A stretch of DNA of 64,000 bases from assembly GCA_963824225.1 (NCBI GenBank), contig CAWGOF010000003.1:3040847-3104846 (forward strand), written 5' to 3'. The stretch comes from an uncultured Acidobacteriota bacterium. GTDB taxonomy: Bacteria; Acidobacteriota; Polarisedimenticolia; Polarisedimenticolales; Polarisedimenticolaceae. Shown piece after piece: positions 33,823 through 51,436 of the stretch (positions are counted from its first letter, which is position 1; each line of letters starts with the position of its first letter). The position numbers and the translations under genes were made by a program. The notes beneath the pieces are model-generated. The model searched no databases. It was not told the DNA's origin and saw only the letters and a program-made list of their open reading frames with translations.

Positions 33823-35013
33823 TTGCCAGGCGAGCCGACCTGCGCGCATCGCAGGCGGCCGCAGCGCCGACTCGAGCTTGCCGACCTCGTCCGTGGCTAC
33901 GGCGATCGTCTACGCTCTATCCGGCGCCTGAGCGGCGAGCAGCTTGCGGCCCTGCGCGCCATCGAGCGCTGTCGTACCCCGGCCCTCGGGGGCAGCCGCG
34001 AAGTCTGCACCAACTGCGGTGCCCAGCGCATCCTGTGGCACTCGTGTCGCAACCGCCACTGCCCGAAGTGCCAGACGACGGCCAAGGAGCGCTGGCTCGA
34101 AGCGCGCCTCGAGGAGTTGTTGCCCGTCGACTACGTGCATGTGGTCTTCACGCTGCCGCACGAGTTGAACGCCTTGGCTCTTGCCTGTCCCCGACTCGTC
34201 TATGGGCTCCTGTTTCAAACCGCCGCAGCGACGCTGCTTGCATTCGCACGCGACGGCCGGCATCTGGGCGCCGAGCCCGGAATCGTCGCCGTCCTGCACA
34301 CCTGGGGCCAGAATCTCTCCCTGCACATCCACCTGCACTGCATCGTCACCGCGGGTGGTCTCGACCCGACGCAACGCCGGTGGATCCGCCGGCCGGGGGG
34401 CTACCTGTTTCCGGTCCACGCCCTGTCCCGCGTGTTTCGCGGCAAGTACCTTGACGCTCTGCGCCACGCGCTCCGCGATTCTCCGGATCTCGCGCGCAGC
34501 GTTTCCATCCAGCAGCTTTGGCAGCACGACTGGGTCGTCTACGCCAAGAAGCCCTTCGGTGGCCCACGCCAAGTCCTGGACTACCTGGCTCGCTACACAC
34601 ACCGCGTCGCGCTGACCAACGATCGATTGCTCGAGTTGCACGAGGGGATCATCGGGGTCCGTTGGCGTGACTACGCACACGGCGGCAAGCGCAAGGTCCT
34701 CCGACTCCACGCCGCAGACCTGCTCGGACGCTTCGTGCTCCACGTTCTCCCGCGCGGCTTCCGACGCGTGCGCCACTACGGGTTGCTCGGCAATCGTCAC
34801 AGGTCCGCCAAGCTCGCCGCGTGTCGGCGCTACTTCGGCATCGCCTCGATCGATCGGTCCACATCGACCGATACTGCATCGTCTCCCTTGCGTCGGCTTG
34901 GCATCGATCCTCGTCGCTGCCCGGCCTGCGGTGCAAGCCAACTCCAACATGAACCCGTCCTACCACAGCCTCCCGTAGCTCGCGCCCGCGCGCCCACTGG
35001 CACCGCATGCTGA
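33823..35013 (+). CDS. IS91-family transposase
   Basis: 396 aa; N-terminal zinc-binding CTNCGAQRILWHSCRNRHCPKCQ, HTW and HxH motifs (AVLHTWGQNLSLHIHLHCIV), C-terminal Y-containing region. Confidence 0.7.
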   Translation: MPGEPTCAHRRRPQRRLELADLVRGYGDRLRSIRRLSGEQLAALRAIERCRTPALGGSREVCTNCGAQRILWHSCRNRHCPKCQTTAKERWLEARLEELLPVDYVHVVFTLPHELNALALACPRLVYGLLFQTAAATLLAFARDGRHLGAEPGIVAVLHTWGQNLSLHIHLHCIVTAGGLDPTQRRWIRRPGGYLFPVHALSRVFRGKYLDALRHALRDSPDLARSVSIQQLWQHDWVVYAKKPFGGPRQVLDYLARYTHRVALTNDRLLELHEGIIGVRWRDYAHGGKRKVLRLHAADLLGRFVLHVLPRGFRRVRHYGLLGNRHRSAKLAACRRYFGIASIDRSTSTDTASSPLRRLGIDPRRCPACGASQLQHEPVLPQPPVARARAPTGTAC

Positions 35014-35318: not shown

Positions 35319-35918
35319 ATGGCGGTCTACCTACGAACTGACGAACAGGTTGAAGCGGCCGCGGCGCTTGAGACGGGTGGCCACGCCGCGGCTCGTGTGG
35401 CACTCGATGTGTATGACTGGCGCTGGGTAGTACTCGCGCTCCACAACGCTCTTCAGGGGTTCATGGTCATAGCCCTTCGTGGGAGCGATGGGTTGGCCCC
35501 GCTCCGAGACAAGATCGCCGCGGCGTGGTTGAAGGCCTACCGATCAAACCAACCTCCCCCCAACGAGGAATTGGACTCCTTCCTCAACCTGTACTCCAAG
35601 ATCAAAGGGCCACGGATGCGGCAGTACATCCACAGCGCCATCTTCCAGGCAAAGGGATCCGAGGACTGGAGCGTGAGGAAGCTGAACGTTCTACGGAATC
35701 AGTTCGTGCACTTCCTGCCTCGTAGCTGGTCGTTAGAGGTCTCCGGCCTGCCCAGGATATGCTTGGACTGCGTCGACGTCATCGAATTCCTCGGCTGGAA
35801 GTGTGGCAACGTTCGGTGGAGTGAGTCATCGGTGGAGCAGCGCGCAGTCGCGGCCGTTCGTGAGCTGCGCGCCGAACTCAGCAAGTTGGCGTCGAAGTAT
35901 GGGGGCACGGCCGCATGA
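35319..35918 (+). CDS. hypothetical protein (lower GC than surroundings)
   Basis: ~200 aa from ATG 35319 (MAVYLRTDEQ...); no recognised domain; GC visibly reduced. Confidence 0.35.
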   Translation: MAVYLRTDEQVEAAAALETGGHAAARVALDVYDWRWVVLALHNALQGFMVIALRGSDGLAPLRDKIAAAWLKAYRSNQPPPNEELDSFLNLYSKIKGPRMRQYIHSAIFQAKGSEDWSVRKLNVLRNQFVHFLPRSWSLEVSGLPRICLDCVDVIEFLGWKCGNVRWSESSVEQRAVAAVRELRAELSKLASKYGGTAA

Positions 35919-36006
35919 CGTCCGGTTGAGCCCGCGGGTTAGCCGTGCGTTAGACAGCCGCCAGTATCACAGCCGCCGACACGCACCGGGACGGAGACCG
36001 AACTCA

Positions 36007-38135
36007 GTGAACCATAGCGAAATCGTCAGCTTTCTCTGGGGCGTCGCGGACCTCATCCGCGACACCTTCAAGCGCGGCAAGTACCAGGACGTCATCCTGC
36101 CGCTCACCGTCCTGCGCCGCCTCGACTGCGTGCTCGCCGGCACCAAGGAGAAGGTGCTCGGCGAAGCAGGCCGAGCTGAGGGGCAAGAAGCTCGAGAACC
36201 TCGACCCGCAGCTGCGCAAGGCCTCCGGCTTCGCCTTCTACAACACCTCCCGCTACGACTTCGAGAAGCTCCTGGCCGACGCGCCGCACCTCGCCGCCAA
36301 CCTGCGCAACTACATCGCCGGGCTTCAGCCCCAACATGCGCGAGGTGCTGGAGAAGTTCGACTTCGACAACACCATCAGCAAGCTCGACGAGGCGGGGCT
36401 TCTCTTCCAGGTGCTCGAGCGCTTCAAGAACGTCGACCTGCACCCCGACAGGATCGACAACCCGACGATGGGCACGATCTTCGAGGAGCTGATCCGGAAG
36501 TTCAACGAAGCGCTGAACGAGAATCCCGGCGAGCACTTCACGCCGCGCGACGTCGTGCACCTGATGGTGGATCTGATGCTCGCCGGCGACGAGACGCGCG
36601 ATCCGCGCCAAGAGGGCGATCGTCGCACGGTCTACGACCCCTGCTGCGGCTCGGGCGGCATGCTGATGATCACCAAGGAGCACATCACGGTCGGCCTGCG
36701 GAAGAACGGCGAGCTGCTCCGGCCCGCGATCAACCCGGACGCCGAGATCCATCTGTTCGGCCAGGAGGTGAACCCCGAGACCTGGGCGGTCTCGAAGTCC
36801 GACCTGTTCATGAAGGACCCGACCGGCCGCGACGCCGACAACATCGCCTTCGGCAGCACGCTCTCCAACGACCGCCACGCCGGCCAGACCTTCGACTACC
36901 TGATCGCCAATCCGCCCTACGGCAAGGACTGGAAGCGCGACGAGGACGCCGTGCGCGCCGAGCACGAGCGCGGCGCCGCGGGCCGGTTCGGCCCGGGCCT
37001 GCCGCGGATCAGCGACGGCCAGCTCCTGTTCCTGCTGCACATGCTGGCCCACGCGAAGGACCCCGAAGGAAGGCGGCTCGCGCATCGCCATCATCATGAA
37101 CGGCTCGCCGCTCTTCACCGGCGACGCCGGCAGCGGCGAGAGCGAGATCCGCCGCTTCATCCTGGAGAACGACCTGCTCGAGGCGCTGATCGCGCTCCCC
37201 GAGCAGCTCTTCTACAACACCGGCATCGCGACCTACGTGTGGGTGGTGACGAACCGCAAGGCGCCGGCGCGCAAGGGCAAGGTGCAGCTCATCGACGCCA
37301 CCTCGTTCTGGGTGCCGATGCGCAAGAGCCTCGGCGACAAGCGCCGCGAGATCCCGCTCGAGCGCGCGCAGGACATCCTGAAGATCCTCGTCCGACTTCC
37401 AGGACGGCGAGACGCGGAAGGTGGCGAAGGACGGCAAGGAAGAGGACGTCGTCGTCAGCCGCATCTTCCCGACCACCCACTTCGGCTTCCGCAAGATCAC
37501 CGTCGAGCGCCCGCTCCGGCTCAACTTCCAGGCGAGCGCCGGAGCGCATCGCCCGCCTCGAGGAGGAGAAGGGCTTCCAGGCGCTGGCGCAGTCGAAGAA
37601 GAAGGGCGCCGCGGGCGCGAAGGAGCAGGCCGAAGGGCGCGCGCTGCAGGAGGCGATCCGCAAACTCGTGCGGGCGCTCCCCGGCACGCTCTTCAAGGAC
37701 CGCGACGAGTTCGAGCGCTTGCTCGACGCCGCCGCGAAGAAGGCCGGCATCAAGCTCCCGGCCGCCGGTCACGCAAGGCCATCCTCTCCGCGCTCTCCGA
37801 GCGCGACGAGACGGCCGCGATCTGCCGCGACAAGGACGGCGATCCCGAGCCCGACCCCGAGCTGCGCGACACCGAGAGCGTGCCGCTCGCCGAGAGCGTC
37901 GAGGCGTTCTTCGAGCGCGAGGTCAGGCCCCACGTCCCGGACGCCTGGATCGACACGTCCAGGCGCGACCCGAAGGACGGCCAGGTCGGCTTCGTCGGCT
38001 ACGAGATCAACTTCAACCGCTACTTCTACCGCTACACCCCGCCGCGCCCGCTCGAGGAGATCGAGGGCGAGATTCGGCGGCATCGAGCAGGACATCCTGC
38101 GGATGCTGGCCGAGGTGACGGGAGGGTCTGTCTGA
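36007..38135 (+). pseudogene. hsdM: Type I restriction-modification system methyltransferase subunit (HsdM), disrupted by at least 7 frameshifts
   Basis: GTG start; HsdM N-terminus NHSEIVSFLWGVADLIRDTFKRGKYQDVILPLTVLRRLD, catalytic NPPYG ([13 protein letters not shown]), HsdM C-terminal region; coding sense hops between frames near 36165, 36325, 37060, 37395, 37540, 37765, 38075. Confidence 0.7.
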
Positions 38136-38203
38136 GGTCTGAGTGGCAGGTGCCGGCACTTGGTCGGATCTGCCGACGTTCTCTGCCGAAAGGTTGGAAT
38201 CAA

Positions 38204-38233
38204 ATGTCGGCACTTGCGATTATGTGCCGACAT
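38204..38233. promoter_or_regulatory. operator-like inverted repeat ATGTCGGCAC-N10-GTGCCGACAT upstream of abiEi (plus related direct repeats at 38151-38180)
   Basis: perfect 10-bp arms, 16 bp upstream of abiEi ATG; AbiEi antitoxins are known autorepressors binding inverted repeats. Confidence 0.45.
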
Positions 38234-38249
38234 CGACTACCATTCCGCC

Positions 38250-38858
38250 ATGGACAAGCCGCGCCTGACCAGGGCACGTCTGAACGCCGCGGGGGTGGGA
38301 GCCTTCTTCCGGCCGCGTGACGTGCTGCCGCTCGGGGTGTCGTTCCGCCAGCTCCAGCGCCTCGTCGCCGAAGGCACGGTCGAGAAGCTCGGGGGCGGTG
38401 TGTATCGGCTCTCCGAAGTCGAGCCGAACGAGCTCGAGACCATAGCGATGGTGGCCTCGGCCGCACCCAACGCGATCGTCTGCCTGCTCACCGCGCTGCG
38501 CGTCCACGGGATTGGAACCCAGGCACCGCACCAGGTGTGGCTGGCGATCGACCGCAAGGCACGCATCCCGAGACGGCTCCCGGCCAAGGTCCGCATCGTC
38601 CGCTTCTCCGGCCAGATGCTGACCTACGGCGTCGTCACGCAGTCCATGCAGGGGGTCAGGGTCCGCCTCACCAATCCTGCCCGCACCGTCGTCGACTGCT
38701 TCCGCTACCGGAACAAGATCGGCCTCGACGTCGGCATGGAGGCGCTGCGCGACGCGGTGCGCTCGCGCAAGGCGATGGTCGGTGAGATCGACCGCGCGGC
38801 CGAGGTGTGTCGCATCCGCACGGTCATCGGACCCTACCTGGAGGCGCTGTCGGCATGA
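38250..38858 (+). CDS. abiEi: AbiEi-family antitoxin/transcriptional regulator
   Basis: ~200 aa; N-terminal winged-helix region (…[46 protein letters not shown]...) typical of AbiEi; stop overlaps abiEii ATG (ATGA). Confidence 0.55.
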
Positions 38859-39799
38859 GCGGGCGGGAGGTCGAAGGCCGGGCGGAATCAATCCGGCAAC
38901 GCCTACGGAACGAGCTTCGCGCCCGCGGCGAGGACGTGACGCTCGGGCTGCCGCGCTACGCGGTCGAGCGGTTCCTGTACCGGCTCGGCCGGTCGCGTCA
39001 CCGTGAGCGCTTCGTGCTGAAGGGAGCGACGCTCTTCGCGATCTGGGGTACGGCCTACCGGCCGACACGCGATGTCGACTTCACGGGCTACGGCAGCCCG
39101 GACGCGCAGGACGTGATCACTGCCTTCCGCGAGATCTGCAACACCCCGGACGACGTCGATCAGCTCGTGTTCGACACGGACTCGATCACGGCGGAGCCGA
39201 TCCGGGACGGCTCGGAGTACGACGGCCTTCGCATCCGGATCCGGGCGCGGCTGGGAGCATCCGACATCCCGATTCAAGCGGACGTCGGATTCGGCAATGC
39301 GATCGTTCCCGGCCCGGAAGAGCAGGAGTATCGAACGATTCTGGGCGATCCGCCGCCGCGAATCCTGGCCTACCCGCCCGAGTCCGTCGTGGCCGAGAAG
39401 CTGCACGCGATGGTGATGCTGGGCGAGCGGAACAGCCGCTACAAGGACTTCTACGACCTCTACGCGATGGCAGGCGCCTTCCATTTTGAGCGGCCCACGC
39501 TCGTGCAGGCGGTGAGGGCAACTTTCGAGCGCAGGAGCACACCGGTGGAGGCAGCGCTCCCCGCGGCGCTCGCGGCTCCCTTCTACGCCAAAGAAGCCCG
39601 TGCGGCGCAGTGGCGCGCGTACGTGGACCGCAACCACCTCACCGAAGCTCCCGCCGACTTCGGTCGCGTAGGCGATCGGCTCACCGCCTTCCTGCAACCC
39701 GTCTGGGCCGACGTCGCCTCCGGCACCGCGACGGCCGGCGACTGGCAAGGCGGGGGACCGTGGTCGCGGGGATCCTCGAGCGGGAGTCCGCCGCCATGA
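38855..39799 (+). CDS. abiEii: AbiEii-family nucleotidyltransferase toxin (DUF1814)
   Basis: 314 aa; ...RFVLKGATLFAIWGTAYRPTRDVDFTGYG... nucleotidyltransferase-fold G-S/D-xD region; pairing with AbiEi. Confidence 0.6.
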   Translation: MSGREVEGRAESIRQRLRNELRARGEDVTLGLPRYAVERFLYRLGRSRHRERFVLKGATLFAIWGTAYRPTRDVDFTGYGSPDAQDVITAFREICNTPDDVDQLVFDTDSITAEPIRDGSEYDGLRIRIRARLGASDIPIQADVGFGNAIVPGPEEQEYRTILGDPPPRILAYPPESVVAEKLHAMVMLGERNSRYKDFYDLYAMAGAFHFERPTLVQAVRATFERRSTPVEAALPAALAAPFYAKEARAAQWRAYVDRNHLTEAPADFGRVGDRLTAFLQPVWADVASGTATAGDWQGGGPWSRGSSSGSPPP

Positions 39800-41651
39800 C
39801 CATCCATCCCCGCCCACCCCGCGAGATCGACGGCAAGGGCCGCACCGTCCGCGAGCTGCTCGCCGGCCGAAAGTACTCGATCGACTACTACCAGCGCGAG
39901 TACAAGTGGCAGCAGAAGCAGGTCGCCGAGCTGATCGACGACCTCGCGGCCAAGTTCCTGGAGAGCCATGAGGACGGCAACGAGCGCAGCGCCGTCGCCG
40001 ACTACGGCCACTACTTCCTCGGCTCGATCATCATCAGCGACAAGGACGGCCAGAAGTTCATCATCGACGGCCAGCAGCGCCTCACCACGCTGACGCTGCT
40101 CCTGATCTTTCTCCACCACAAGCTCGGGGACGCCGAGCAGAAGGGGCAGATCGCCGATCTCATCTTCTCGCAGAAGTTCGGCAAGCGCTCGTTCAACCTC
40201 GACATCCCCGAGCGCACCGCCTGCATGGAGGCGCTCTACAAGGGCGAGGAGTTCGCCGACGCCGACGCGCCCGAGTCCATCGCCAACATCCTGGCCCGCT
40301 ACGCGGACCTCGAGGACCTGTTCCCCGAAGAGCTCGCCGGCGCCGGCGCTGCCGTACTTCGTGGACTGGCTGGTCGAGAACGTGCACCTGGTCGAGATCA
40401 CCGCCTACTCCGACGGCGACGCCTACACGATCTTCGAGACGATGAACGACCGCGGGCTCTCGCTCACCCCCGCGGACATGCTCAAGGGCTACCTGCTCGG
40501 CGAACATCACCGACGCCGACAAGCGCACCCGCGCGAGCCGCATCTGGAAGGAGCGGGTGCAGGCGCTGGCCGAGCTCGGCAAGGACGAGGACGCCGACGG
40601 CATCAAGTCGTGGCTGCGCAGCCAGTACGCCGAGAGCATCCGCGAGCGCAAGCGCGGCGCAGCGCCGCAGGACTTCGACCTGATCGGCACCGAGTTCCAC
40701 CGCTGGGTGCGCGACCACGACGGACCGCCTCGGTCTCACGGCCAGCGCCGAGTTCGCTCGCTTCATCGAGCGCGACTTCGCGTTCTACGGCCGCTGGTAC
40801 GAGCGCCTGCGGCGCGCGGCCGAGGCGCTCGCGCCCGGGCTCGAGTGCGTCCACTTCAACGCCCAGCACAACTTCACGCTCCAGTACCCGGTGCTGCTTG
40901 GCGCCGCTCCGCGTGGAGGACGACGAGGCCGGCGTGCTGCGCAAGCTCCGCGTCGTGGCCGCTTACCTCGACATCCTGATCCACCGCCGCATCTGGAACT
41001 GGCGCGCGATCGACTACTCGACGATGCAGTACGCGATGTTCCTCGTGATGCGCGACATCCGCGGCAAGGGCGTCGCCTGAGCTGGCCGCGCTGCTGCGCG
41101 AGCGCCTCGACGCCGAGACCGAGACCTTCGCGAGCAACGACCGCTTCCGGCTGCACGGCATGAACGGCCGCCAGATCCACCGGCTGCTGGCGCGCATGAC
41201 GGACTACGTGGAGACGCGCTCCGGCATGGCCTCGCGCTACCCCGAGTATGCCCAGCGCGGCCGGAAGGGCTACGAGATCGAGCACATCTGGGCCGACCAC
41301 CCCGAGCGGCACACCGACGAGTTCGCGCACCCGAGCGAGTTCCAGGAGTACCGGAACCGCATCGGCGGCCTGCTGCTCCTGCCGAAGAGCTTCAACGCCA
41401 GCTACGGCGATCTGCCCTACGCCGAGAAGCGCGAGCACTACGTCGGCCAGAACCTGCTCGCGCGGAGCCTCCACGAGCGCGCGTACGACCACAACCCGGG
41501 CTTCCGGCGCTTCATCGAGGAGAGCGGCCTGCCGTTCCGCGCGCACGCCGAGTTCAGGAAGGCCGATCTCGACGCGCGGCAGGTGCTCTACCAGCGACTG
41601 GCCGAGCGGATCTGGAGCCCGGAGCGGCTGGGACAGGAGGCGGCGTCGTGA
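39796..41651 (+). pseudogene. GmrSD-like (DUF262 + DUF1524) modification-dependent type IV restriction endonuclease, multiply frameshifted
   Basis: N-terminal DUF262 with FIIDGQQRLTTL motif; C-terminal DUF1524 HNH-like region GYEIEHIWADHPERH...; sense switches frames near 40345, 40500, 40725, 41085. Confidence 0.55.
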
Positions 41652-43015
41652 GCGGGGCGACGTACAGCGAGCGTGCGGGAGCGCTGCGGCGGTACAAGCC
41701 ATACCCGGCCTACAAGGACTCCGGCGTCGAGTGGCTGGGGGAGATTCCGGCGCATTGGGATCTGCGCCGGCTCAAGACCAGCGCTGCTGTTCAGCTCAGC
41801 AACGTCGACAAGAAGTCGGTTGAAGGCCAGGAAGCAGTGCGGCTCTGCAACTACACCGACGTCTACTACCACGAGCGCATCTCAGCAAACCTGGACTTCA
41901 TGGCAGCCACGGCGACATCGGACCAAGTGCGCCGCTTTGCACTACGCAAGGGCGATGTGCTCATCACCAAGGACTCGGAGTCTTGGACCGACATCGCGGT
42001 GCCCACGGTCGTAGCGGAAGATCTGCCCGGAGTGTTGTGCGGCTATCACCTCGCCCACATCAGACCCACTCACGTTTGCCACGGACCCTTTCTCGCGCGG
42101 GCCTTCAGCGCGATTGGCCCTCGGGATCAGTTTCAAGTCGCGGCCAACGGCATCACTCGTTTCGGGCTTGGCGGCGATGCGATTGCAACCGGGCTGTTCG
42201 CAATGCCCCCCGAGCCCGAGCAACGCGCCATCGCCGCCTTCCTCGACCGGGAGACGGCGCGGATCGATGCGCTGGTGGCGAAGAAGGAGCGGCTGATCGA
42301 GTTGCTCCAGGAGCAGCGCACCGCCCTCATCACCCGCGCCGTCACCAAGGGCCTCGACGCGAATGCCCCGATCTCAGGCACGGGCTCTACCGTCTTTCCT
42401 CCGGTCCCGTCGGGGTGGGAGTTGCGGAAGCTGCGGCGTCTCCTCACGCGGGTGAAACGACCCGTCAAAGTTGACCCTGACTCTGAGTACCGGGAGATCG
42501 GCATCCGCTCGTGGGGCAAAGGCATCTTTCACAAGGAACCCGTGCGCGGGGTTCTGCTCGAGGACAAGAGTGTGTTCGGTATCGAGCCGGGCGACTTCGT
42601 GCTCAACATCGTCTTCGCATGGGAAGGCGCAGTCGCCGTTGCTGCCGAACCGGAGCGTGGAATGGTCGGCTCGCACCGTTTTCCCACGTTTCGCACCTCC
42701 GAGGAAGTTGATCTGGACTACCTCTTGATGGTTTTTCAGACCAAGCATGGCCGTGCGTTGATGGAGGTGAACTCGCCAGGTGCTGCGGGTCGCAACAAGA
42801 CGATCAGGGTAGACCAGTTTCTCGATGAGCTGGTGCCGCTGCCTCCGGTCGCGGAACAGAAGGAGATTGTCCGACGGTTTAGGAGCGATGAAGTGCGGCT
42901 CGGCGGACTCGTCGGGCGGCTTTGCGAGGCCATCGACCGCCTCAAGGAGCTGCGCACTGCCCTCATTTCCGCCGCGGTGACGGGCAAGATCGACGTGCGG
43001 GAGGTCGAGGCATGA
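41648..43015 (+). CDS. hsdS: Type I R-M specificity subunit (HsdS), two target-recognition domains
   Basis: 455 aa; GTG start overlapping upstream stop; two TRD halves separated by conserved coiled-coil repeats (…LQEQRTALITRAVTKGLD… and …LKELRTALISAAVTGKIDVRE). Confidence 0.75.
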   Translation: MSGATYSERAGALRRYKPYPAYKDSGVEWLGEIPAHWDLRRLKTSAAVQLSNVDKKSVEGQEAVRLCNYTDVYYHERISANLDFMAATATSDQVRRFALRKGDVLITKDSESWTDIAVPTVVAEDLPGVLCGYHLAHIRPTHVCHGPFLARAFSAIGPRDQFQVAANGITRFGLGGDAIATGLFAMPPEPEQRAIAAFLDRETARIDALVAKKERLIELLQEQRTALITRAVTKGLDANAPISGTGSTVFPPVPSGWELRKLRRLLTRVKRPVKVDPDSEYREIGIRSWGKGIFHKEPVRGVLLEDKSVFGIEPGDFVLNIVFAWEGAVAVAAEPERGMVGSHRFPTFRTSEEVDLDYLLMVFQTKHGRALMEVNSPGAAGRNKTIRVDQFLDELVPLPPVAEQKEIVRRFRSDEVRLGGLVGRLCEAIDRLKELRTALISAAVTGKIDVREVEA

Positions 43016-44700
43016 GGGTCACCAAGGCGCGCATCCGGAACTTCCGTGGCCTGAAGGACGTCGGGTTGGAACTCGGTTCGACCACGGTGCTGATCGGCGA
43101 GAACAACTCCGGCAAGACGTCGGTGCTGGACGCCCTCCGGCTCTGCCTCAGGGAGTTGGGACCCCGGCGCCGGGTGGTCTTCGACAGCTTCGACTTCCAT
43201 CTGAAGGACGGAGCGGCGGAGCCGCAGTCGGCAGACCCTATCGAGATCGAGATCAGGTTCTCGGAGACTTCCAAGGGAGAATGGAACGACGCGCTGGTTG
43301 GTCGCCTGAATCGCCAGAAGATCCTGCAGGTCGACGGCGACGATCTGAACCACGTCATGCTCCGCGTCACCTGCACCTACGACCCGACGAACCGAGACTT
43401 TGCTCAGGACTGGGCCTTCCTGAACCTCGAGGGGAAGCCGTTGACCGCAGTGTCCGAAACGGCACTGGGAACCCTGCAACGCGAGGTCGCCTTCTACTAC
43501 CTGAGCGCGCTCCGCGATGCCGCGTGGCACTTCGATGCCAAGGGGCCCTTCTGGAGGCCGTTCCTCAAAGACAGCCAGCTCACGGAGGCCAGGAAGGCTG
43601 AGGTCGTGGAGAAGCTCCGGGAGATCAATGAGCTGGTCGTCGCCTCCCACACCAGCTTCGAGCACGCCATAGAACGGCTCGGCCGAGTGCGGGACGTGGT
43701 GCCGATGGCGGGCGGAGACATGGTGTCCATCGAGGCCGTACCGGGGCGGATGTTCGACATGCTGGCCAAGGCGCAGGTGCACTTGGGCGCGTCGACCGGA
43801 GCGAGAATCCCGATCGGGAGACACGGCGAGGGAACCCAGAGCCTTTCCGTCCTGATGCTCTTCTCCGCGTTTCTGAGTACGAAGCCGGAGGGCAGCCCCG
43901 TGGTGGCGCTCGAGGAGCCGGAAGCGCACTTGCATCCATCGGCGGTCCGGGCCCTCTGGGACATCCTCCGCTTGATCGACGGCCAGAAGTTGATCTCGAC
44001 CCACAGCGGCGATCTACTCTCTGAGGTGGATGTTCTCAATGTGCGTCGTCTCGCCATGGCGGAGGACGGCATTCGAGCCTATCGCGTCCCCTCCACGCTC
44101 CTGTCTGCGGAGGAGACGCGAAAGTTCAACTACCACATCCGCAGATCACGGGGCGAGCTCCTCTTCGCTCGCTGCTGGCTCCTAGTCGAGGGGGAGACCG
44201 AAGCCTGGGTTTATCCTGCGGCCGCTCGTGCTCTTGGGATGAAGCTCCACCGTGATGGCGTGCGGATCGTTGAGTACAGCCAGTCCGACGTAGGACTCCT
44301 GGCCAAGGTCGCGAACTCGCTGGGTCTCCTGTGGTTCTGTGTCATCGACGATGACTCGGGTAGAAGCGAGTACGAACGGAACGTGCAGGACAACCTCGCG
44401 GGGGCATCTGAGAGCGACCGACTCCGCTTTCCGTACAGGAACATAGAAACGCACCTGCTCGAGAGTGGCTACGACGCGATCTATGACCCGTACATGCCGG
44501 AGCAGAAGCGCGCCCTACTGACGAAGCACCCGGGCGATGACGGCTACTGGGCCGACTTCGCAGACCAGCTACCGAAACGACGCAAGACCCGAGCAGCGGC
44601 CGATGTAGCCGCTGCGATGGAGGCGAAGGGCAAGGAGGGGGTGACGGACGAGCTCCGCGGCATCCTCGAGAAGGTCGTGGCTCTGGCGCGAGGTGAGTGA
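43012..44700 (+). CDS. gajA: OLD-family ATPase/Toprim endonuclease, GajA-like
   Basis: 562 aa from ATG overlapping hsdS stop; Walker A GENNSGKTS, ABC-type ATPase region, C-terminal Toprim LLVEGETEAWVYP; partner UvrD-like helicase immediately downstream = Gabija-type architecture. Confidence 0.65.
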   Translation: MRVTKARIRNFRGLKDVGLELGSTTVLIGENNSGKTSVLDALRLCLRELGPRRRVVFDSFDFHLKDGAAEPQSADPIEIEIRFSETSKGEWNDALVGRLNRQKILQVDGDDLNHVMLRVTCTYDPTNRDFAQDWAFLNLEGKPLTAVSETALGTLQREVAFYYLSALRDAAWHFDAKGPFWRPFLKDSQLTEARKAEVVEKLREINELVVASHTSFEHAIERLGRVRDVVPMAGGDMVSIEAVPGRMFDMLAKAQVHLGASTGARIPIGRHGEGTQSLSVLMLFSAFLSTKPEGSPVVALEEPEAHLHPSAVRALWDILRLIDGQKLISTHSGDLLSEVDVLNVRRLAMAEDGIRAYRVPSTLLSAEETRKFNYHIRRSRGELLFARCWLLVEGETEAWVYPAAARALGMKLHRDGVRIVEYSQSDVGLLAKVANSLGLLWFCVIDDDSGRSEYERNVQDNLAGASESDRLRFPYRNIETHLLESGYDAIYDPYMPEQKRALLTKHPGDDGYWADFADQLPKRRKTRAAADVAAAMEAKGKEGVTDELRGILEKVVALARGE

Positions 44701-46584
44701 TGACTTTGAACCTGGACTCATTGAACGAGAACCAGCGCAAGGCCGTCGAATGGCAGGATGGTCCCCTGCTCGTCCTCGCTGGTCCGGGGTCTGGAAAGAC
44801 TCTGGTCTTGACTCTGCGCGTGGCGCGTCTACTGGAGGAGCACGAGGACGCCGCGGTGCTCGCCCTCGCTTTCACGAGCAAGGCGGCCGCGGAGATGCGC
44901 GAGCGAGTCGATCGCCTTCTGGGGCAACACGGCGACCGTGCGCAGCTCTGCACCTTCCATGCGTTCGCTACCGACGTGCTGCGGCAGCATGGTAGCCATG
45001 TGGGGATTCAGCCCGACTTCTCTGCTGATCCAGGAGGAGGATCGGGTGGCCTTGGTGCAAGAGATCGTCGAGGATCTGACGGAGAATGGCCACGTCTTCC
45101 CGACCGATCACCGGAACACCCTCGCGCTCGTGGATCGCCTGTTCGCCTCCTCCTACGACGGTGCTCGAGAGGCTTCTTCCCTCGTGCACACTCCTGCGTG
45201 GGTACCGGACTTGTTTGCGACTTACTGCCAGCGGCTTGTCGCCGCGAACCGGTTGGATTTCGGTGCCCTGCTCCACTTCGCCCGCAAGCTCCTGTCAGAG
45301 CAAGGCGGTGTGACTCGCGTGTTGCGGGCGGGCTGGAGCTACGTGTGCGTCGACGAGTTCCAGGACACGAACAAGGCGCAGTACGACCTGCTGAGACTGC
45401 TCGTGCCACCAAGTGCACCGAATCTCTTCGTGGTCGCGGACGATGATCAGATCATCTACCAGTGGAACGGCGCGAGCCCCGAGCGTTTGCAAGCCCTGCA
45501 GCAGGATCACGGGATGGAAGTCGTTCAGCTCCCGGAGAACTTCCGGTGTCCGAAGGAGATCATCGATCTGGCGAACCGACTCATCGCTCACAACCGACTC
45601 CGGGCCGCGGACAAGAAGCCGCTGACCACCAGTCGGCGTGCCGCGTCGAGCGATGACCTCGTCCGGGTGCGTGCGTACTGCACACCCGAGGAGGAAGCGG
45701 CGGGCATCGCCGCCGACATTCGCGATCGCGGGCTGGCGCCTGTAGACGTGGCCGTTCTCGCCCGGACGACGAAGCTGCTCAATGGAGCGGCCGAGGCGCT
45801 AGGAGCCGCAGGTCTCGACGCTCATGTTACCCAGCGCAAGGCGGAGTTCGAGACTCCTTTGGTGCGCGTGGTCTTCCACGCGCTTCGGCTCGCGAATTCC
45901 CGGCACGACCGCGATGTGCTGCGACGTCTGTGCGTCGCTTGGGGCGCCCTCACGGACCACGATCTGGAACTCGGAGACGTGATCGCCGGGGCCACACTTG
46001 CCGGGGGGGACTTCCTGCGCGCGTGGGCTGATGCCGCGGCGGCTGGTGCGGAGGGAAGTCATGCGGATCTACTCGGCCGCCTTCGGTCATCGCTGGTGGA
46101 TCGCCTCGACTTCCCGGGCGTTGTCGATTGGTTTCTGTCCGATGGCGCGACGACGCCGGCGGACGTCGACGACCCGGCGCTGGCGACCGAGCTCGAGACC
46201 TGGCAAGAGCTGCACGGCGAGCTGGTGCGAGAGCACGGCGAGGATGCACTGACCTTGAACGTCTACCTGCAGCACATGGACCTGGCACCGAAGGGTCCCC
46301 GGCCGGGCCCGAACGCCGTCCGTTGCATGACGATGCATGGAGCGAAGGGGCTCGAGTTCCGGCACGTGTACCTGATCGGAATGGCGCAGGAGGTCTTCCC
46401 CTCCTTTCAGGCGCTTCGCAAAGGGGCGAACAGCCGGGAAGTCGAAGAAGAGCGCAGGAACTGCTTCGTCGCGATCACACGGGTTCAGGAAACGCTGACG
46501 TTGACATATGCGCGTCAGTACTACGGCTACCGCAAGAATCGCTCGCAGTTCCTCGAGGAGCTGGGGCTCTCGGAGGGCTCGTGA
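44700..46584 (+). pseudogene. gajB: UvrD/PcrA-like superfamily-1 helicase, GajB-like, with one frameshift near 45025
   Basis: LVLAGPGSGKT Walker A, VCVDEFQDTN (Walker B/DEAD-like), ...; frame A ends ...GIQPDFS, frame B continues LLIQEEDRVALVQEIVE; start overlaps gajA stop (TGATG). Confidence 0.55.
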
Positions 46585-46637
46585 TTCTTCATCCGGGTTA
46601 CCGCTCCAGATGCCCTTTCTCGACCGAGACACCGCCA

Positions 46638-46741
46638 TTGTCGCCAAGGCCTGCGAGGCCATCGAGCGCCTCAAGGAACTCCGCACCGCCCTCATCTCCG
46701 CCGCGGTGACGGGCAAGATCGACGTGCGGGAGGAGGTCGCA
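46638..46741 (+). repeat. duplicated 3' end of hsdS (~90% identical to 42918-43015) forming direct repeats around the gajAB insertion
   Basis: encodes ...AKACEAIERLKELRTALISAAVTGKIDVREEVA* versus hsdS end ...CEAIDRLKELRTALISAAVTGKIDVREVEA*; stop overlaps hsdR ATG exactly as at the hsdS-gajA junction. Confidence 0.8.
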
Positions 46742-49700
46742 TGAGCCCCGAGATCTCCGAGCGCTCCTTCGAGGAGGCGATCGAGTGCGCGCTGCTCCAG
46801 CACGGCCCCGACGCCTGCGCCGAGCGACGCGACGGCTGTCCGCGAGACGCCGCCGCCGTACGGCGACACGCCGCCGGGCGGCTATCGCAAGCGCAAGCCC
46901 GAGGACTACGACCGCACGCTCTGCCTGCTGCCGCGCGACGTGGTGGACTTCGTCCTCGCCACGCAGCCCAAGGAGTGGAAGAAGCTCGAGCAGCACCACG
47001 GCGCGGCGGTCCAGCGAGCAGTTCCTGAAGCGCCTCGCCGCCGAGATCGAGCGGCGCGGCGCGCTCGACGTGCTGCGCAACGGCATCAAGGACTCCGGCT
47101 GCAAGTTCCGGCTCGCCTACTTCCGCCCCGCGAGCGGGCTCAACGAGGAGACGCGGCGGCTGCACGCGGCGAACCTCTTCGCCGTGGTGCGCCAGCTCCG
47201 CTACAGCACGAAGAACGAGAAGAGCCTCGACCTGGTGCTGTTCCTGAACGGCATCCCGATCTTCACCGCCGAGCTCAAGAACCCGCTCAACGGCCAGGAC
47301 GTCGAGGACGCGATCCGCCAGTACAAGACCGACCGCGACCCGCGCGAGCCGCTGCTCGCCTACGGCCGCTGCCTCGCGCACTTCGCGGTGGACCCGGACC
47401 TGGTCTACGTCACCACGCAGCTCGCCGGGCCGAGGACGCGCTTCCTGCCCTTCAACCAGGGCAAGTTCGGCGGCGCCGGCAACCCGCCCGTGCCGCCCAC
47501 GCGCAAGCGGCTACGCGACCGCCTACCTCTGGGAGGAGACCTGGGCGCGCGACAGCGTGCTCGACCTCGTGCGCCAGTTCATCCACGAGGTCGAGGAGGA
47601 GGACGACAAGGGGCGCAAGACCGGCAAGCGCTTCCTGATCTTCCCGCGCTACCAGCAGCTCGACTGCGTGCGCAGGCTCGTGACCGACGCGCGCGCGAGC
47701 GGGCGCGGGGCAGCGCTACCTGATCCAGCACTCGGCCGGCAGCGGCAAGAGCTTCACCATCGCCTGGCTCGCCCACCAGCTCTCGACGCTCCACGACGCG
47801 AGCGACCGGCGCGTCTTCGACTCGATCGTCGTCATCACCGACCGGCGCGTGCTCGACCGCCAGCTCCAGACGACGATGCGCCAGTTCGAGCAGACGCTCG
47901 GCGTGGTGGAGAACATCGACACCACCTCGCGCCAGCTCAAGGAGGCGCTCGAGTCGGGCAAGACGATCATCGTCACCACGCTGCAGAAGTTCCCGGTGAT
48001 CGCGAAGGAGATCGGCGAGCTGCCGGGCAAGCGCTTCGCCGTGATCGTGGACGAGGCGCACTCGTCGCAGTCGGGCGAGAGCACGAAGAGCCTCGAAGGC
48101 GGTGCTCGCGTCGGGGTCGCTCGAGGAGGCCGAAGCCGAGGAGAGACGGAGGCAGGACGCCGGAGGAGGAGCTCGAGAGCTACGCTCCTGGCCGAGATGG
48201 AGAAGCGCGGGCACGCTCCCGAACCTCTCGACGTTCGCCTTCACCGCCACGCCGAAGCCGAAGACGCTGGAGCTGTTCGGCACGAAGCGCGCCGACGGGA
48301 AGTTCGCGCCCTTCCACCTCTACAGCATGCGCCAGGCGATCGAGGAGGGGTTCATCCTCGACGTGCTGGCGAACTACACGACCTACAAGGCCTACTGGCG
48401 GCTGCTCAAGAAGGTCGAGGACGACCCGCGCTACGACAAGAAGAAGGCCGAGTACCTGCTCAAGTCGTTCGTCGAGCTGCACCCGCACGCGATCGGCGAG
48501 AAGGTGCGGATCATGCGTCGAGCACTTCGCCGCGCAGGTGCAGGGCGAGATCGGCGGCAAGGCCAAGGCGATGATCGTCACGCGCTCGCGCCTGCACGCG
48601 GTGCGCTACAAGCTGGCGGTGGACGAGTACCTCGCCGAGCGCGGCTATCCGTTCAAGGCGCTGGTGGCGTTCTCCGGCACGGTCCAGGACGGCGGGCAGT
48701 CCTACACCGAGTCCGAGCATGAACGGCTTCCCGGAGGCGCAGACCGCCAAGACCTTCGAGCGGCCCGAGTACCGGTTCCTGATCGTCGCCAACAAGTTCC
48801 AGACCGGCTTCGACCAGCCGCTGCTGCACACGATGTACGTGGACAAGAAGCTCGGCGGCGTGAACGCGGTGCAGACGCTCTCGCGGCTCAACCGCACGCT
48901 ACCCCGGAGAAGAAGGGCACGATGGTGCTCGACTTCGCCAACGAGGCCGACGAGATCAAGGCCGCCTTCGAGCCCTACTACGAGACGACGCTGCTCTCCG
49001 AGGCGACCGACCCGAACCTGCTCTACGAGATCCAGACCCGCCTCGCCGCCTTCCCGGTCTACACCGAGGCCGACGTGGACGCCTTCGCCAAGGTCTACTT
49101 CGACCCCAAGGCGACGCAGGACCGGCTCTACGCCGTGCTCGCGCCCGTGGTCGAGCGCTTCCAGGCAGCTCTCGCGCCGAGGAGCAGCACGACTTCCGCG
49201 GCCAGCTCACCGACTACGTGCGGCTCTACGCCTTCCTCGCCCAGGTGCTGACCTTCGCCGACGCCGACCTCGAGAAGCTCTACGTCTTCGCGCGGCACCT
49301 GCGGCGGCTGCTGCCCGCCGACCGCGCCGAGCTGCCGCGCGAGGTGCAGCAGAACATCGACATGGAGTCGTACCGGATCCAGCAGACCGGCAGCGGCAAG
49401 ATCGCGCTGGAGCGCAGGCCCGGCGTGCTCGAACCCGTGAGCACCAAGCAGCGGCCACGGCGTCGACGCCGGAGGAGCTGGAGACGCTCTCGCGCATCAT
49501 CGCCGAGCTGAACGAGCGCTTCGGACTCAACCTCGGCCCCGAGCACCGCGTGACGCTCGGCCAGATGATGGAGAAGCTCGACGACGACGCGGCGCTCGAC
49601 GCGGCGGCGCGGGTCAACACGCGCGAGAACGTGCGGCTCACCTTCGACCAGAAGGTCGAGCACGTGATCCAGGAGATCGTCGACTCGAACTTCGAGCTCT

Positions 49701-50336
49701 ACAAGCGCATCACCGACGACCGCGCCTTCGGCGAGGCGATCAAGAACTTCCTGTTCGACCAGTACCTGCGCGCTCACCGCAACGCCGAGGAGCTGATCAA
49801 GCGCGGCGAGTCGAAGACGCTGGAGTTCAAGTCCACCCTGCGCTGGAGCCTCAAGGAGGACCGGCAGGACGACAAGGGCGTGACGCACGCCGTCCTGAAG
49901 ACGATCGCCGCGTTCCTGAACACCGAGGGCGGCGATCTCCTGATCGGCGTGGCGGACGACGGCGCGATCGTCGGCATCGAGCACGACCAGCTCGAGAACG
50001 ACGACAAGTTCATGCGCCACCTCGCCCAGGTCGTGCGCAACGGTCTCGGCGACCGTGCCGGTACCTGCATCGATCCGAAGACCCAGATCGTGCAGGGCAA
50101 GACGGTCTGCGTCGTGAGCTGCCAGCGGAGCCCTGAGCCGGTGTTCCTGAAGTGGAAGGGGATGGAAGACGCGCCGGACGGCGACTTCTTCGTCAGGAGC
50201 GGCCCCGGGACCGTGAAGCTCCCTCCCGAGAGCGCGCGTCGAGTACATTCGAACGCGGTTCGCCGGGTTCCTAGTCGAAGAGAAACCAGACGCACCATCA
50301 AGGGGAGCGACAACGGGTCCCGGCGCGGACACCGCA
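46741..50336 (+). pseudogene. hsdR: Type I restriction enzyme R subunit (HsdR), multiply frameshifted, with in-frame C-terminal AlbA_2/Schlafen-like (divergent AAA_4) domain
   Basis: HsdR N-terminal nuclease region, SF2 helicase motifs (QHSAGSGKSFT, DEAHSSQ, ...), C-terminal ...[20 protein letters not shown]...; at least 8 frame switches between 46990 and 49460; 49790-50235 encodes [13 protein letters not shown]...[18 protein letters not shown] AlbA_2-like domain. Confidence 0.65.
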
Positions 50337-51436
50337 TGAGCTACTTCATGGATTTGTTTTCGCCCGAAACATATGAGGCGTTTGCCAAGTCAGACAGGAC
50401 CATTTCGGGGTTTCGCCCCCGGCAGCGAAACATCGCCCAACGCATCAGGCCGGGGGACAAACTCGTCTGCTATATGACTCGGCTGTCGCGCTGGATCGGC
50501 ATTCTCGAGGTGGAGAATGGGCCTTTCAACGACGCGACGCCGATCTTCTATCCGGAGGCAGATCCTTTTACGGTCCGGTTTCGCGTTAGAGCGAAGGTCT
50601 GGCTGCCGTTGGAGAAGACGGTGCCAATCCACGCCTCAACGGTCTGGGGCAGTCTGTCCTTCACTAGCAAGCTTCCCCACTCCTCTACTGCTTGGACTGG
50701 AAAGGTCCGAGGCAGCCTGGTGGCTCTATCGGACGCCGACGGCGAATTCCTAGAGTCGCTGCTGGCCCGGCAAGCTACGGCTGGTCAGGAATACGCCCTG
50801 GATTCAGATGAGCAGAAGAAGCTCCGGGCAACGAAGATCAGGCGTCTCGAGAAGGACGTCACGGTTACCGTTCCAGAAGACGCCGAGCCCGCCGCACCGC
50901 CTGTAGTCGTCGGTGAAGTGCGAGAGTCCATTCGCATCCAGGCGCTTCTCGCCGAAGTCGGTAGCCGAATGGGGCTACAGATTTGGATTCCTCGATCTGA
51001 CCGCGCCGCCGTGGAAACTGAATGGCGGAGAGACCACCCGCCAATCCTCGACCGCCTACCCCTCAACTACGATGACACGACCCTCAGGACTATCGAGCAG
51101 ATCGATGTGCTGTGGCTAAAAGGCCGCTCCATCAAGCGGGCCTTCGAGGTTGAGCATACGACGTCCGTGTACTCGGGAATTTTGCGGATGGCCGACCTGC
51201 TTGCGCTCCAGCCAAACATGGATATCCGGCTCCATATCGTCGCGCCGCCCGCTAGGCGCGAGAAAGTCTTCCAGGAGATCCTGCGGCCAGTCTTCTCTCT
51301 CCTAGATCGGGGCCCTCTCTCCGAAAGCTGCACCTTCGTGTCCTATGAGAGCGTTCGTGAGCTCGCCGATCAGCAGCATTTGGAACACCTATCGGATACA
51401 GTCCTCGATGAATACGAGGAGCAAGCCGGGGATTAG
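50337..51436 (+). CDS. PUA-like (EVE/ASCH-type) domain fused to putative PD-(D/E)xK-like nuclease domain; candidate modification-dependent restriction enzyme
   Basis: no stop separates it from hsdR frame, but GC drops to ~58% from 50337 and codon usage changes; N-terminal [18 protein letters not shown]...[25 protein letters not shown]-like pattern; C-terminal ...[19 protein letters not shown]... nuclease-like motif. Confidence 0.4.

Follow-up and report, generated by a model that had tools for sequence, protein, structure and literature searches.

A duplicated hsdS end beside a Gabija cassette in a type I restriction operon is a probable remnant of a single ancestral rearrangement

Domain shuffling of hsdS through its conserved regions is a classical phenomenon, exemplified by the EcoR124/EcoDXXI and the Salmonella SB/SP/SQ recombinants. 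A second type of hsdS rearrangement is found at inverton/shufflon loci, which use partial hsdS genes located near a complete hsdS (PMC7672463). Defence genes are also known to be embedded in type I restriction-modification (R-M) operons; examples include PrrC, RloC, TgvAB of Vibrio VPI-2, and the DarTG2 of EPEC, inserted between hsdS and hsdR. Such genes have been the subject of a 'guilt by embedding' survey. The gap between hsdS and hsdR has been termed a potential recombination hotspot (PMC12255303), GmrSD-like genes have been described within a type I operon (PMC11411939), and Payne et al. (10.1101/2024.01.29.577857) catalogued genes nested inside type I R-M loci and argued that Gabija or PARIS can serve as backup for a system inhibited by Ocr. 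Embedding in type I operons and the hsdS-hsdR hotspot are already published, and the locus described here leaves that general picture unchanged. It provides a sequence-level example of how a defence cassette nests in a type I restriction operon, including the joint that was used, the remnant that was left and the parts that were kept.

The operon is located in a 64,000-nt stretch of DNA from an uncultured Acidobacteriota bacterium (the window), with all genes on the + strand in the order hsdM-[AbiEi/AbiEii, GmrSD]-hsdS-[gajA-gajB]-hsdR. The methylase gene hsdM (35803-38135) was identified by the Pfam domain N6_Mtase and by tblastn with the HsdM of locus L004, which matches successive frames; the window HsdM is 82-92% identical in amino acid sequence to other HsdM proteins of the family. 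Two intact genes, encoding AbiEi (38160-38858; Pfam AbiEi_4/AbiEi_1; PADLOC score 213 bits) and AbiEii (38807-39799; Pfam AbiEii; 336 bits), occupy 38160-39799 between hsdM and hsdS; they are followed by a GmrSD-like type IV restriction gene (39796-41651; PADLOC HEC-06-like, HEC-06/Orf5), whose Pfam domains GmrSD_N and GmrSD_C extend over three frames and whose ATG overlaps the AbiEii stop codon (ATGA at 39796). The hsdS gene (41648-43015) is intact and encodes 455 amino acids in an uninterrupted frame, with a full-length match to PADLOC Specificity_I (304 bits), two target-recognition domains, a central conserved region at ~42296-42345 and a C-terminal conserved region. Downstream of the cassette, hsdR starts at 46741 and ends at approximately 50320; it was followed across frames by tblastn, its Pfam domains are HSDR_N, T1R_D3-like and a C-terminal SLFN_AlbA_2, and thousands of HsdR proteins match its stitched N-terminus at 77-96% identity. 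The presence of hsdM, hsdS and hsdR in one operon, supported by Pfam and PADLOC and by the same gene order in >80 related loci, identifies a type I R-M system.

The two genes between hsdS and hsdR correspond to Gabija. The intact gajA (43012-44700) encodes a 562-amino-acid ATPase with an OLD-type TOPRIM nuclease; it matches positions 1-568 of the 569 in PADLOC GajA (PDLC00094, 658 bits) and carries the Pfam domains AAA_15, AAA_21, DUF2813 and OLD-like_TOPRIM, as expected for Gabija GajA. The adjacent gajB (44697-46584) encodes a UvrD-like helicase (Pfam UvrD-helicase and UvrD_C) and matches PADLOC GajB (PDLC00114) in two pieces on two frames, covering profile positions 1-82 and 110-633. As in described Gabija systems, the two genes are adjacent and match the profiles along their length; by contrast, gajB reads as frameshifted in this assembly, and gajAB lacks a separate upstream region, with the gajA start codon (ATG) overlapping the hsdS stop codon, whereas the free-standing gajAB loci L172 and L173 share ~55 nt of upstream sequence. 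Based on the literature on Gabija, the cassette would form a second defence layer co-expressed with the restriction enzyme. Like other hsd operons with embedded defence genes, the window operon has same-strand cargo between hsd genes that recurs in relatives, and uses the hsdS-hsdR gap as a site. It differs from them in having three cargo units (AbiE, GmrSD and Gabija) in two slots, and in that the Gabija insertion left behind a duplicate of the hsdS end, which persists as a short ORF. We found no description of a duplicated hsdS end left by embedded cargo in the literature on embedded defence genes with which we compared the locus.

Several operon genes change reading frame in this assembly. 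We observed at least 5 reading-frame switches in hsdM, ~5 in the GmrSD-like gene (from a frame plot) and ~10 in hsdR, together with one frameshift in gajB at ~44,900-45,100, where the gene is 2 nt shorter than in relatives (a 2-nt gap relative to L169). Genes elsewhere in the window hold one frame for 2-2.7 kb. Most indels relative to L082 are single-base insertions outside homopolymers, and a Logan contig contains an intact 628-amino-acid GajB adjoining a GajA identical to that of the window. The frameshifts in hsdM, the GmrSD-like gene and hsdR are likely to be assembly errors. Were these and the gajB frameshift real, the operon would be dead and the functional arguments made here would be void for this genome.

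A repeat search identified a single direct-repeat family joining the two ends of the cassette: positions 42923-43016 and 46652-46745 align without gaps over 94 nt at 90% identity. The copies share an exact 37-mer, TCCGCCGCGGTGACGGGCAAGATCGACGTGCGGGAGG (42968-43004 and 46697-46733), that has no further occurrence in the whole window with up to 3 mismatches allowed; 0 of 100 sequence shuffles produced a match. Copy 1 (42923-43015) lies in the intact hsdS and forms the distal part of its C-terminal conserved region, and copy 2 (46652-46744) is the distal part of a stump upstream of hsdR. Each is closed by an ATGA in which a stop codon overlaps a start codon, that of hsdS with gajA at 43012-43015 and that of the stump with hsdR at 46741-46744. 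The sequence-only reading had reported this duplication together with its stop/start context, and had started the second interval ~14 nt upstream of where the high-identity repeat begins. Comparison with hsdS genes of the family extends the homology of the downstream copy further, back to the gajB stop codon at 46584. The repeat is the hsdS C-terminal conserved region in two copies, one being the working end of hsdS and the other a ~160-nt stump of an older allele (46585-46744) that contains the whole C-terminal conserved region, is joined directly to the gajB stop codon and abuts hsdR.

A third, weaker relative of the repeat, 74-76% identical to both copies, lies at 42296-42345; it is the central conserved region, i.e. 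the generic internal repeat of hsdS. Internally repeated conserved regions of this kind, and the partial hsdS genes of known shufflons, raise the idea that the stump is itself a generic internal repeat or a silent partial hsdS for phase-variable switching of specificity. We consider this extremely unlikely. In contrast to the hsdS genes of shufflons, the stump consists of the conserved end only and lacks a target-recognition domain; its orientation is direct instead of inverted, and the locus has no inverted repeats; no recombinase gene was detected among the Pfam-scanned operon genes; and the stump lies 3.7 kb outside hsdS and is absent from all 65 gajAB-free family loci with a visible hsdS end.

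We compared the locus with related operons. The window operon is one member of a horizontally spreading family of type I R-M operons with nested defence-gene cargo; the family spans many phyla, with HsdR N-termini 77-100% identical among 81 fetched loci, and has the layout hsdM-[AbiE +/- GmrSD]-hsdS-[slot]-hsdR, with two cargo slots. This survey of an operon family with two slots in many phyla may help the cataloguing of defence islands. The hsdS-hsdR slot is empty in 29 of the 81 loci, all of which show exactly the junction seen at copy 2, and related loci with directly adjoining hsdS and hsdR have the identical junction GAGGAGGTCGC-ATGA-GCCCCGAGATCTCC; the downstream copy is thus the ordinary hsdS-hsdR junction of the family, as had been proposed from the window. 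A further 36 loci carry other cargo in the slot, mostly Fic but also M78+DUF4411, confirming that the gap is a recurrent cargo site. A second hsdS end was found in none of the 81 related loci and, among 173 loci, two hsdS-end motifs occur only in the gajAB/stump lineage. The duplication is accordingly confined to loci that bear gajAB, and is not a feature of hsdS in loci without an insertion. In the window, L168, L169, L170 and L180, the hsdS-hsdR slot holds the cassette; in L170/171 and L168 it does so without a stump.

Other assemblies, including several based on short reads, also contain the stump. Its alignment to the hsdS ends of the family starts at the EQRAI motif, i.e. at the gajB stop codon, and covers more than the 94-nt repeat; its 4-codon deletion and its joint at the gajB stop codon are also found in two other lineages, L169/L180-183 and L178/179. 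Since the stump, the joint and the deletion are common to three lineages, they mark one old rearrangement, inherited with the operon, rather than a recent integration in this genome. These independent assemblies also bear on the idea that an assembler joined two operons through their shared hsdS end. The copies do share a 37-mer, the conserved parts of the operon are present in many co-occurring organisms, and the many indel errors of this assembly fall precisely in those conserved parts; however, both the gajB-stump-hsdR joint and the hsdS-gajA joint recur in L169, L180-183 and L178/179, making a chimera very improbable.

In the GajA tree, the window groups with L169 as its sister taxon. The two loci are 90-95% identical over most of gajAB and 90-92% identical over the stump and the start of hsdR. 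By contrast, their target-recognition domains are unrelated, with homology returning in the central and C-terminal conserved regions, as in classical hsdS domain shuffling. More generally, target-recognition domains have been exchanged between loci that are otherwise ~90% identical, in agreement with the domain swapping that the sequence-only reading had suggested. The upstream hsdS allele was thus replaced after the founding event by homologous exchange through the conserved regions, and this replacement accounts for most of the difference between the two copies. Domain shuffling differs from what is seen here in that it leaves no duplicated ends, such that the stump requires an additional step, either non-homologous or a single crossover.

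The divergence between the copies had been taken as a sign that gajAB arrived in this genome with a foreign hsdS 3' segment, by recombination within a conserved hsdS end that serves as a general landing pad for cargo. Direct repeats do flank the cassette, within the family this slot is a hotspot for cargo, and the third-position G+C content (GC3) of hsdS (0.76) and gajAB, 0.76-0.81 together, is below that of hsdM and hsdR (~0.95). Low GC3 is not decisive as a sign that hsdS arrived with gajAB: GC3 of the AbiE genes is lower too, and target-recognition domains are freely exchanged. Several results speak against this model. The stump and its deletion are shared with two other lineages. Copy 1 is up to 92% identical to family hsdS ends and is no closer to the gajA-linked ends of L168 (69%), L170 (with L169, 83-85%) and L004 (57%) than to ordinary family ends; it lies within normal family variation and is not foreign. 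The break is at the boundary between the second target-recognition domain (TRD2) and the conserved region, ~67 nt upstream of the start of the repeat, and homologous exchange alone yields no duplication. Lastly, none of the 36 slots filled with other cargo shows an hsdS duplication, indicating that the conserved hsdS end is not a general landing pad. Overall, we regard integration of this kind as quite unlikely.

We favour an account in which the stump was inherited from a single ancestral join, hsdS was later replaced, and the distal part of the stump was retained; we assign this account as a whole a probability of about 0.7. The founding event occurred once, in an ancestor that the window lineage shares with two or more others, and the composite operon has been inherited from then on. 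In this event, a block ending in hsdS-gajA-gajB would have joined a resident hsdS at the TRD2/conserved-end boundary, right after the gajB stop codon. That joint would have been non-homologous, while the upstream side of the block could have been anchored by ordinary homology. L170 and L168, in which hsdS is followed through ATGA by gajA, could exemplify the arrangement of the donor; the loci surveyed included neither a donor nor an intermediate state of the founding event. Judged from the anatomy, the joint could have been formed by an illegitimate join, by single-crossover insertion of a circle or by local duplication. We rejected two candidate signatures of the event. Microhomology between hsdS (42816-42836) and gajB (46547-46567), 86% over 21 nt with both encoding QFL(D/E)EL, was set aside on the grounds that this C-terminus of gajB is also native to free-standing relatives and that the contexts are not colinear. 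A T as first base (Cys codon) of both copies is a single base at which a chance match is possible.

The circle insertion has a more general form, in which gajAB is mobile. A circle carrying gajAB and one hsdS conserved end would insert by a single crossover into any family hsdS end, creating flanking repeats, and could be excised by recombination between them; the conserved end would then be a portable homology arm by which the cassette enters and leaves family operons, and the stump ORF would be selected as a translational bridge such that cargo does not silence hsdR. A single crossover of a circle predicts exactly the observed anatomy, and a decayed proximal stump accompanies gajAB in three lineages with different hsdS alleles. 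In the GajA tree, gajAB embedded in R-M operons are intermixed with free-standing pairs, and a short-read contig with an identical GajA seems, from its gene coordinates, to end near the central conserved region and the hsdR start. Nevertheless, AbiE and the hsdR start, which flank the cassette on the outside, likewise show their highest similarity between the window and L169, such that inheritance of the entire locus from a common ancestor is a sufficient explanation. All loci with a stump carry one common scar, instead of separate insertions bearing the same repeats, and form the only stump lineage among 173 loci; neither circular nor empty-site forms were observed, and the operon contains no recombinase. 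We consider the mobile circle unlikely, and likewise its extension to a homology arm and a selected bridge.

Conservation of the stump is uneven. Between the window and L169, identity is 75% in the proximal stump, 81% at gajB third codon positions and 92.5% in the distal stump; across the three stump lineages, the distal part is 92-94% identical, as compared with 69-75% for the proximal part. The proximal stump drifts at about the neutral (synonymous-site) rate. The distal 93 nt were most likely kept for the hsdR ribosome-binding site, with the Shine-Dalgarno sequence GGAGG at 46732-46736 inside copy 2, and for the stop/start overlap, suggesting a constraint on nesting: the downstream gene must retain its translation start. 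Gene conversion with intact hsdS ends, instead of selection on hsdR translation, could also explain conservation of the distal stump, and codon bias in this G+C-rich family likewise restricts synonymous change.

Stump-bearing loci have a chain of ORFs with overlapping stop and start codons, and a short ORF across the stump would couple translation of hsdR to that of gajB. In the window this is a 44-codon ORF (46610-46744; MPFLDRDTAIVAKACEAIERLKEL...REEVA), corresponding to an ORF of 53 codons in L169/L180-183 and L178/179; its exact protein is on record as P0242 for the 3.55-Mb source contig. Alignment A2 shows that the ancestral start codon of the stump ORF has changed from ATG to ATT in the window, and that a 1-nt deletion puts the ATG at 46610 in frame. 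With the ancestral start lost and this deletion, coupling in the window may be unlike that in the other lineages. A terminator-like hairpin at 46564-46580, just upstream of the stump, was discounted, as such sites are not above shuffled expectation in the region.

Many short database proteins annotated as HsdS C-termini were considered as possible further stumps; the two contexts checked are broken or split hsdS genes rather than stumps that follow cargo. In three assemblies, loci L174-176 have hsdS split into ORFs of 384 aa and 58 aa, and L177, from a noisy assembly, has a broken or split hsdS context.

The operon lies on the forward strand and comprises hsdM (~35803-38135), AbiEi and AbiEii (38160-39799), a GmrSD-like gene (39796-41651), hsdS (41648-43015), gajA (43012-44700), gajB (44697-46584), a short hsdS-like stretch that we call the stump (46585-46744), and hsdR (46741 to ~50320), which encodes a C-terminal SLFN_AlbA_2 (Schlafen-like) domain at ~49800-50320. 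Adjoining genes are usually joined by an ATGA overlap, and GajA and GajB match the PADLOC Gabija profiles over their full lengths, GajB in two pieces on two frames. The duplication of the hsdS 3' end around gajAB, proposed in the sequence-only reading, was confirmed, and the interpretation placed on it is partly supported. Positions 42923-43016 and 46652-46745 form a gap-free 94-nt direct repeat with 90% identity, the only long one in the region, and the stop codon at the end of each copy is overlapped by the ATG of the next gene. An exact 37-mer common to both copies occurs at no other site in the window, and shuffled sequence gave zero matches to it. A weaker relative of the repeat, at 42296-42345, corresponds to the hsdS central conserved region.

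We aligned the sequence 3' of the gajB stop to HsdS C-termini of the operon family, and found that it encodes the entire C-terminal conserved region, beginning with the EQRAI motif, minus four codons. Since this region is complete from the gajB stop, the old hsdS was broken directly 3' of that stop, where its second target-recognition domain meets the conserved end, and not inside the repeated segment; hsdS homology runs upstream of the 94-nt repeat to the gajB stop. Only 94 nt are visible as a repeat within the window because the intact hsdS has another subtype of proximal conserved region (EQKEIVRRFRSDEVRLGGLVGRL in intact hsdS versus EQRAIAAFLDRETARIDALVAKV).

Stitched over the frame switches of the window hsdR, the HsdR N-terminus has 77-96% identity to thousands of HsdR proteins, whose MAGs of origin bear the labels of many different phyla. 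We sampled 80 metagenome loci, plus locus L081, with 10-kb flanks. All 81 belong to a family with the layout hsdM-[AbiEi/AbiEii, with or without GmrSD]-hsdS-[slot]-hsdR. The slot was empty, with hsdS abutting hsdR, at 29 loci and filled with cargo at 36, most of it Fic (HPFxDGNGR motif); the hsdS end was not visible at the remaining 16, mostly because the upstream flank was too short. In aligned abutting loci the hsdS-hsdR junction matches the downstream repeat copy plus the hsdR start of the window, indicating that this copy is the ordinary junction of the family and that the ancestral junction persists downstream, as proposed. The related idea that hsdS ends act as a landing pad for defence cargo holds in one respect, the slot being a real cargo hotspot, and fails in another: cargo normally sits there without duplication, a second hsdS end being found at 0 of the 81 family loci.

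Across the family operons (L081-L167), again from MAGs labelled as many phyla, identity is 77-100% for the HsdR N-terminus and 82-92% for HsdM. Family cargo occupies two slots: the hsdM-hsdS gap takes AbiE, in some loci joined by GmrSD, and the hsdS-hsdR gap takes Fic, M78+DUF4411 or Gabija. The slot of L139 and L161 holds an ImmA-like gene and, after it, a 166-aa gene; the same pair in L168 and L174 is Peptidase_M78 and DUF4411 by Pfam. At two Fic loci (L091, L099) the cargo start ATGAGC overlaps the hsdS stop, as the hsdR start does in empty-slot loci. At these and two others (L111, L148) hsdR again starts with ATGAGC, after repeated ACTTGCGACA-like motifs, and the Fic joints look as if the start context had undergone a short duplication. 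In a Gemmatimonadaceae locus (L174, 7818-9177) and in L175 and L176, hsdS is split into ORFs of 384 and 58 aa, the latter containing only the C-terminal conserved region; the split occurs in three assemblies, one of them short-read. L174 has M78, DUF4411 and Fic in its hsdS-hsdR slot.

We traced the closest GajA relatives (79-83% identity) to their contigs. The order hsdS-(ATGA)-gajA-gajB upstream of a family hsdR recurs in L169, L168 and L170/171. In L169 the stump is a 54-codon ORF (53 codons from the ATG) whose start is overlapped by the gajB stop and whose own stop overlaps the hsdR ATG. The same structure is present in short-read loci L180-183, with the same stump protein as L169, and in short-read loci L178/179, with a stump 70% identical. 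The joint and the four-codon gap are identical in all three stump lineages (window; L169/L180-183; L178/179), which argues against integration in the present genome. In the GajA tree the window groups with L169 as its sister, and the two share 90-95% identity over most of gajAB, 90-92% over the stump and hsdR start, and 81-91% over AbiE; both hsdS target-recognition domains are unrelated, and GmrSD is present in the window and absent from L169. The shared joint and gap, the similar flanks and the unrelated target-recognition domains indicate a single old rearrangement, after which the locus was inherited and hsdS alleles were exchanged through their conserved regions. The stump is the scar of this event, passed on since; because the flanks share common descent, repeated insertion is unnecessary. 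Within gajA, a patch at 44300-44600 in the 3' part is only 61-62% identical to L169 and could be a recombined or fast-evolving segment.

Gabija also occupies the slot without a stump in L170, which has a 55-nt unrelated spacer instead, and in L168, which has extra cargo. In L172 and L173, gajAB is free-standing with its own upstream region. More distant gajAB pairs lie directly 3' of hsdS in further type I families (L004, L009, L010); in L006 and L007 (52% GajA identity) the pair precedes a gene with the N-terminus VVVFYDPRG, which by eye we took to be BREX-like (PglZ-type).

Divergence between the repeat copies had been read as a sign that the cassette brought a foreign hsdS 3' segment. Over the first 75 nt of the repeat, the upstream copy reaches 92% identity with ordinary family hsdS ends and is less similar to gajA-linked ends (83-85% for L170 and L169, 69% for L168, 57% for L004), contrary to that suggestion. 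The downstream copy is nearer the family consensus. Because the divergence is of the size seen among family alleles, and the upstream hsdS allele has been replaced since the event, it carries no information on the arrival of the cassette. Homologous recombination within hsdS could not, on its own, duplicate the hsdS end. The end of gajB may have become linked to the old hsdS by a non-homologous joint, with homology acting upstream; a circle bearing gajAB plus a single hsdS end may have entered by one crossover; or a local duplication may have accompanied insertion. All three routes to the founding event fit the anatomy, and the data favour none.

We compared stump conservation between the window and L169. 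Identity is 89% over the last 600 nt of gajB, 81% at gajB third codon positions, 75% over the proximal stump (67 nt) and 92.5% over the distal stump (93 nt). The proximal stump thus changes at about the pace of synonymous sites, and the distal stump is held constant. The distal part contains GGAGG 4 bases upstream of the hsdR ATG, and the overlapping stop. The gajB stop (TGATG) and the hsdR start (ATGA) are bridged in two lineages by a 53-codon ORF. The window has ATT in place of the ancestral ATG, and a deletion of 1 nt puts the ATG at 46610 in frame, giving a 44-codon ORF; its exact 44-aa product, P0242, is recorded for the 3.55-Mb source contig. We infer that the stump has become the hsdR translation-initiation region and a coupling ORF. 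Gene conversion with intact hsdS ends, or codon bias, would be alternative explanations for the distal conservation.

Genes embedded in type I restriction-modification, BREX and DISARM systems have been catalogued by Payne et al., in whose view Gabija or PARIS, both of which Ocr triggers, can serve as a backup to the host system (10.1101/2024.01.29.577857). In EPEC, DarTG2 lies between hsdS and hsdR at a site its authors term a potential recombination hotspot (PMC12255303), and the type I operon of Vibrio VPI-2 encloses GmrSD-like TgvAB (PMC11411939). The window locus is another such case and adds an inherited hsdS stump; as a well-resolved example of a known phenomenon, its significance is modest.

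GC3 frame plots and protein-to-DNA alignments revealed at least 5 frame switches in hsdM, ~5 in GmrSD, ~10 in hsdR and 1 in gajB; other window genes keep one frame over 2-2.7 kb. Those in hsdM, GmrSD and hsdR (35803-38135, 39796-41651, 46741-50320) total ~20 and are mostly single-base insertions outside homopolymers. Alignment with the intact hsdR of L082 shows 13 insertions of one base, 2 of two bases, and 2 deletions of one base in the window hsdR, all of them outside homopolymers. The translated pieces between switches are otherwise pristine. Since the affected segments are exactly those that many organisms share at high identity, the frameshifts are likely to be consensus errors of a long-read metagenome assembly, arising at repeats between genomes. 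The gajB gene reads frameshifted at ~44900-45100, where it is 2 nt shorter than that of L169; a Logan contig encoding an identical GajA (ERR11630401) has an intact 628-aa GajB.

The C-terminal SLFN_AlbA_2 domain of family HsdR is also found in L170 (12631-16161), and conservation across the operon family stops near 50240. Directly after hsdR is a separate 366-aa ORF (50336-51436) with lower GC3 and a weak match, under the Pfam cut-off, to the EVE (modified-base-binding) domain; it is joined in frame to hsdR in the present assembly, probably by an insertion error at ~50239. A 217-aa ORF without a counterpart in relatives lies just upstream of the operon, and an IS91-family transposase gene (Y2_Tnp + Zn_Tnp_IS91; 33823-35013) lies ~0.8 kb upstream.
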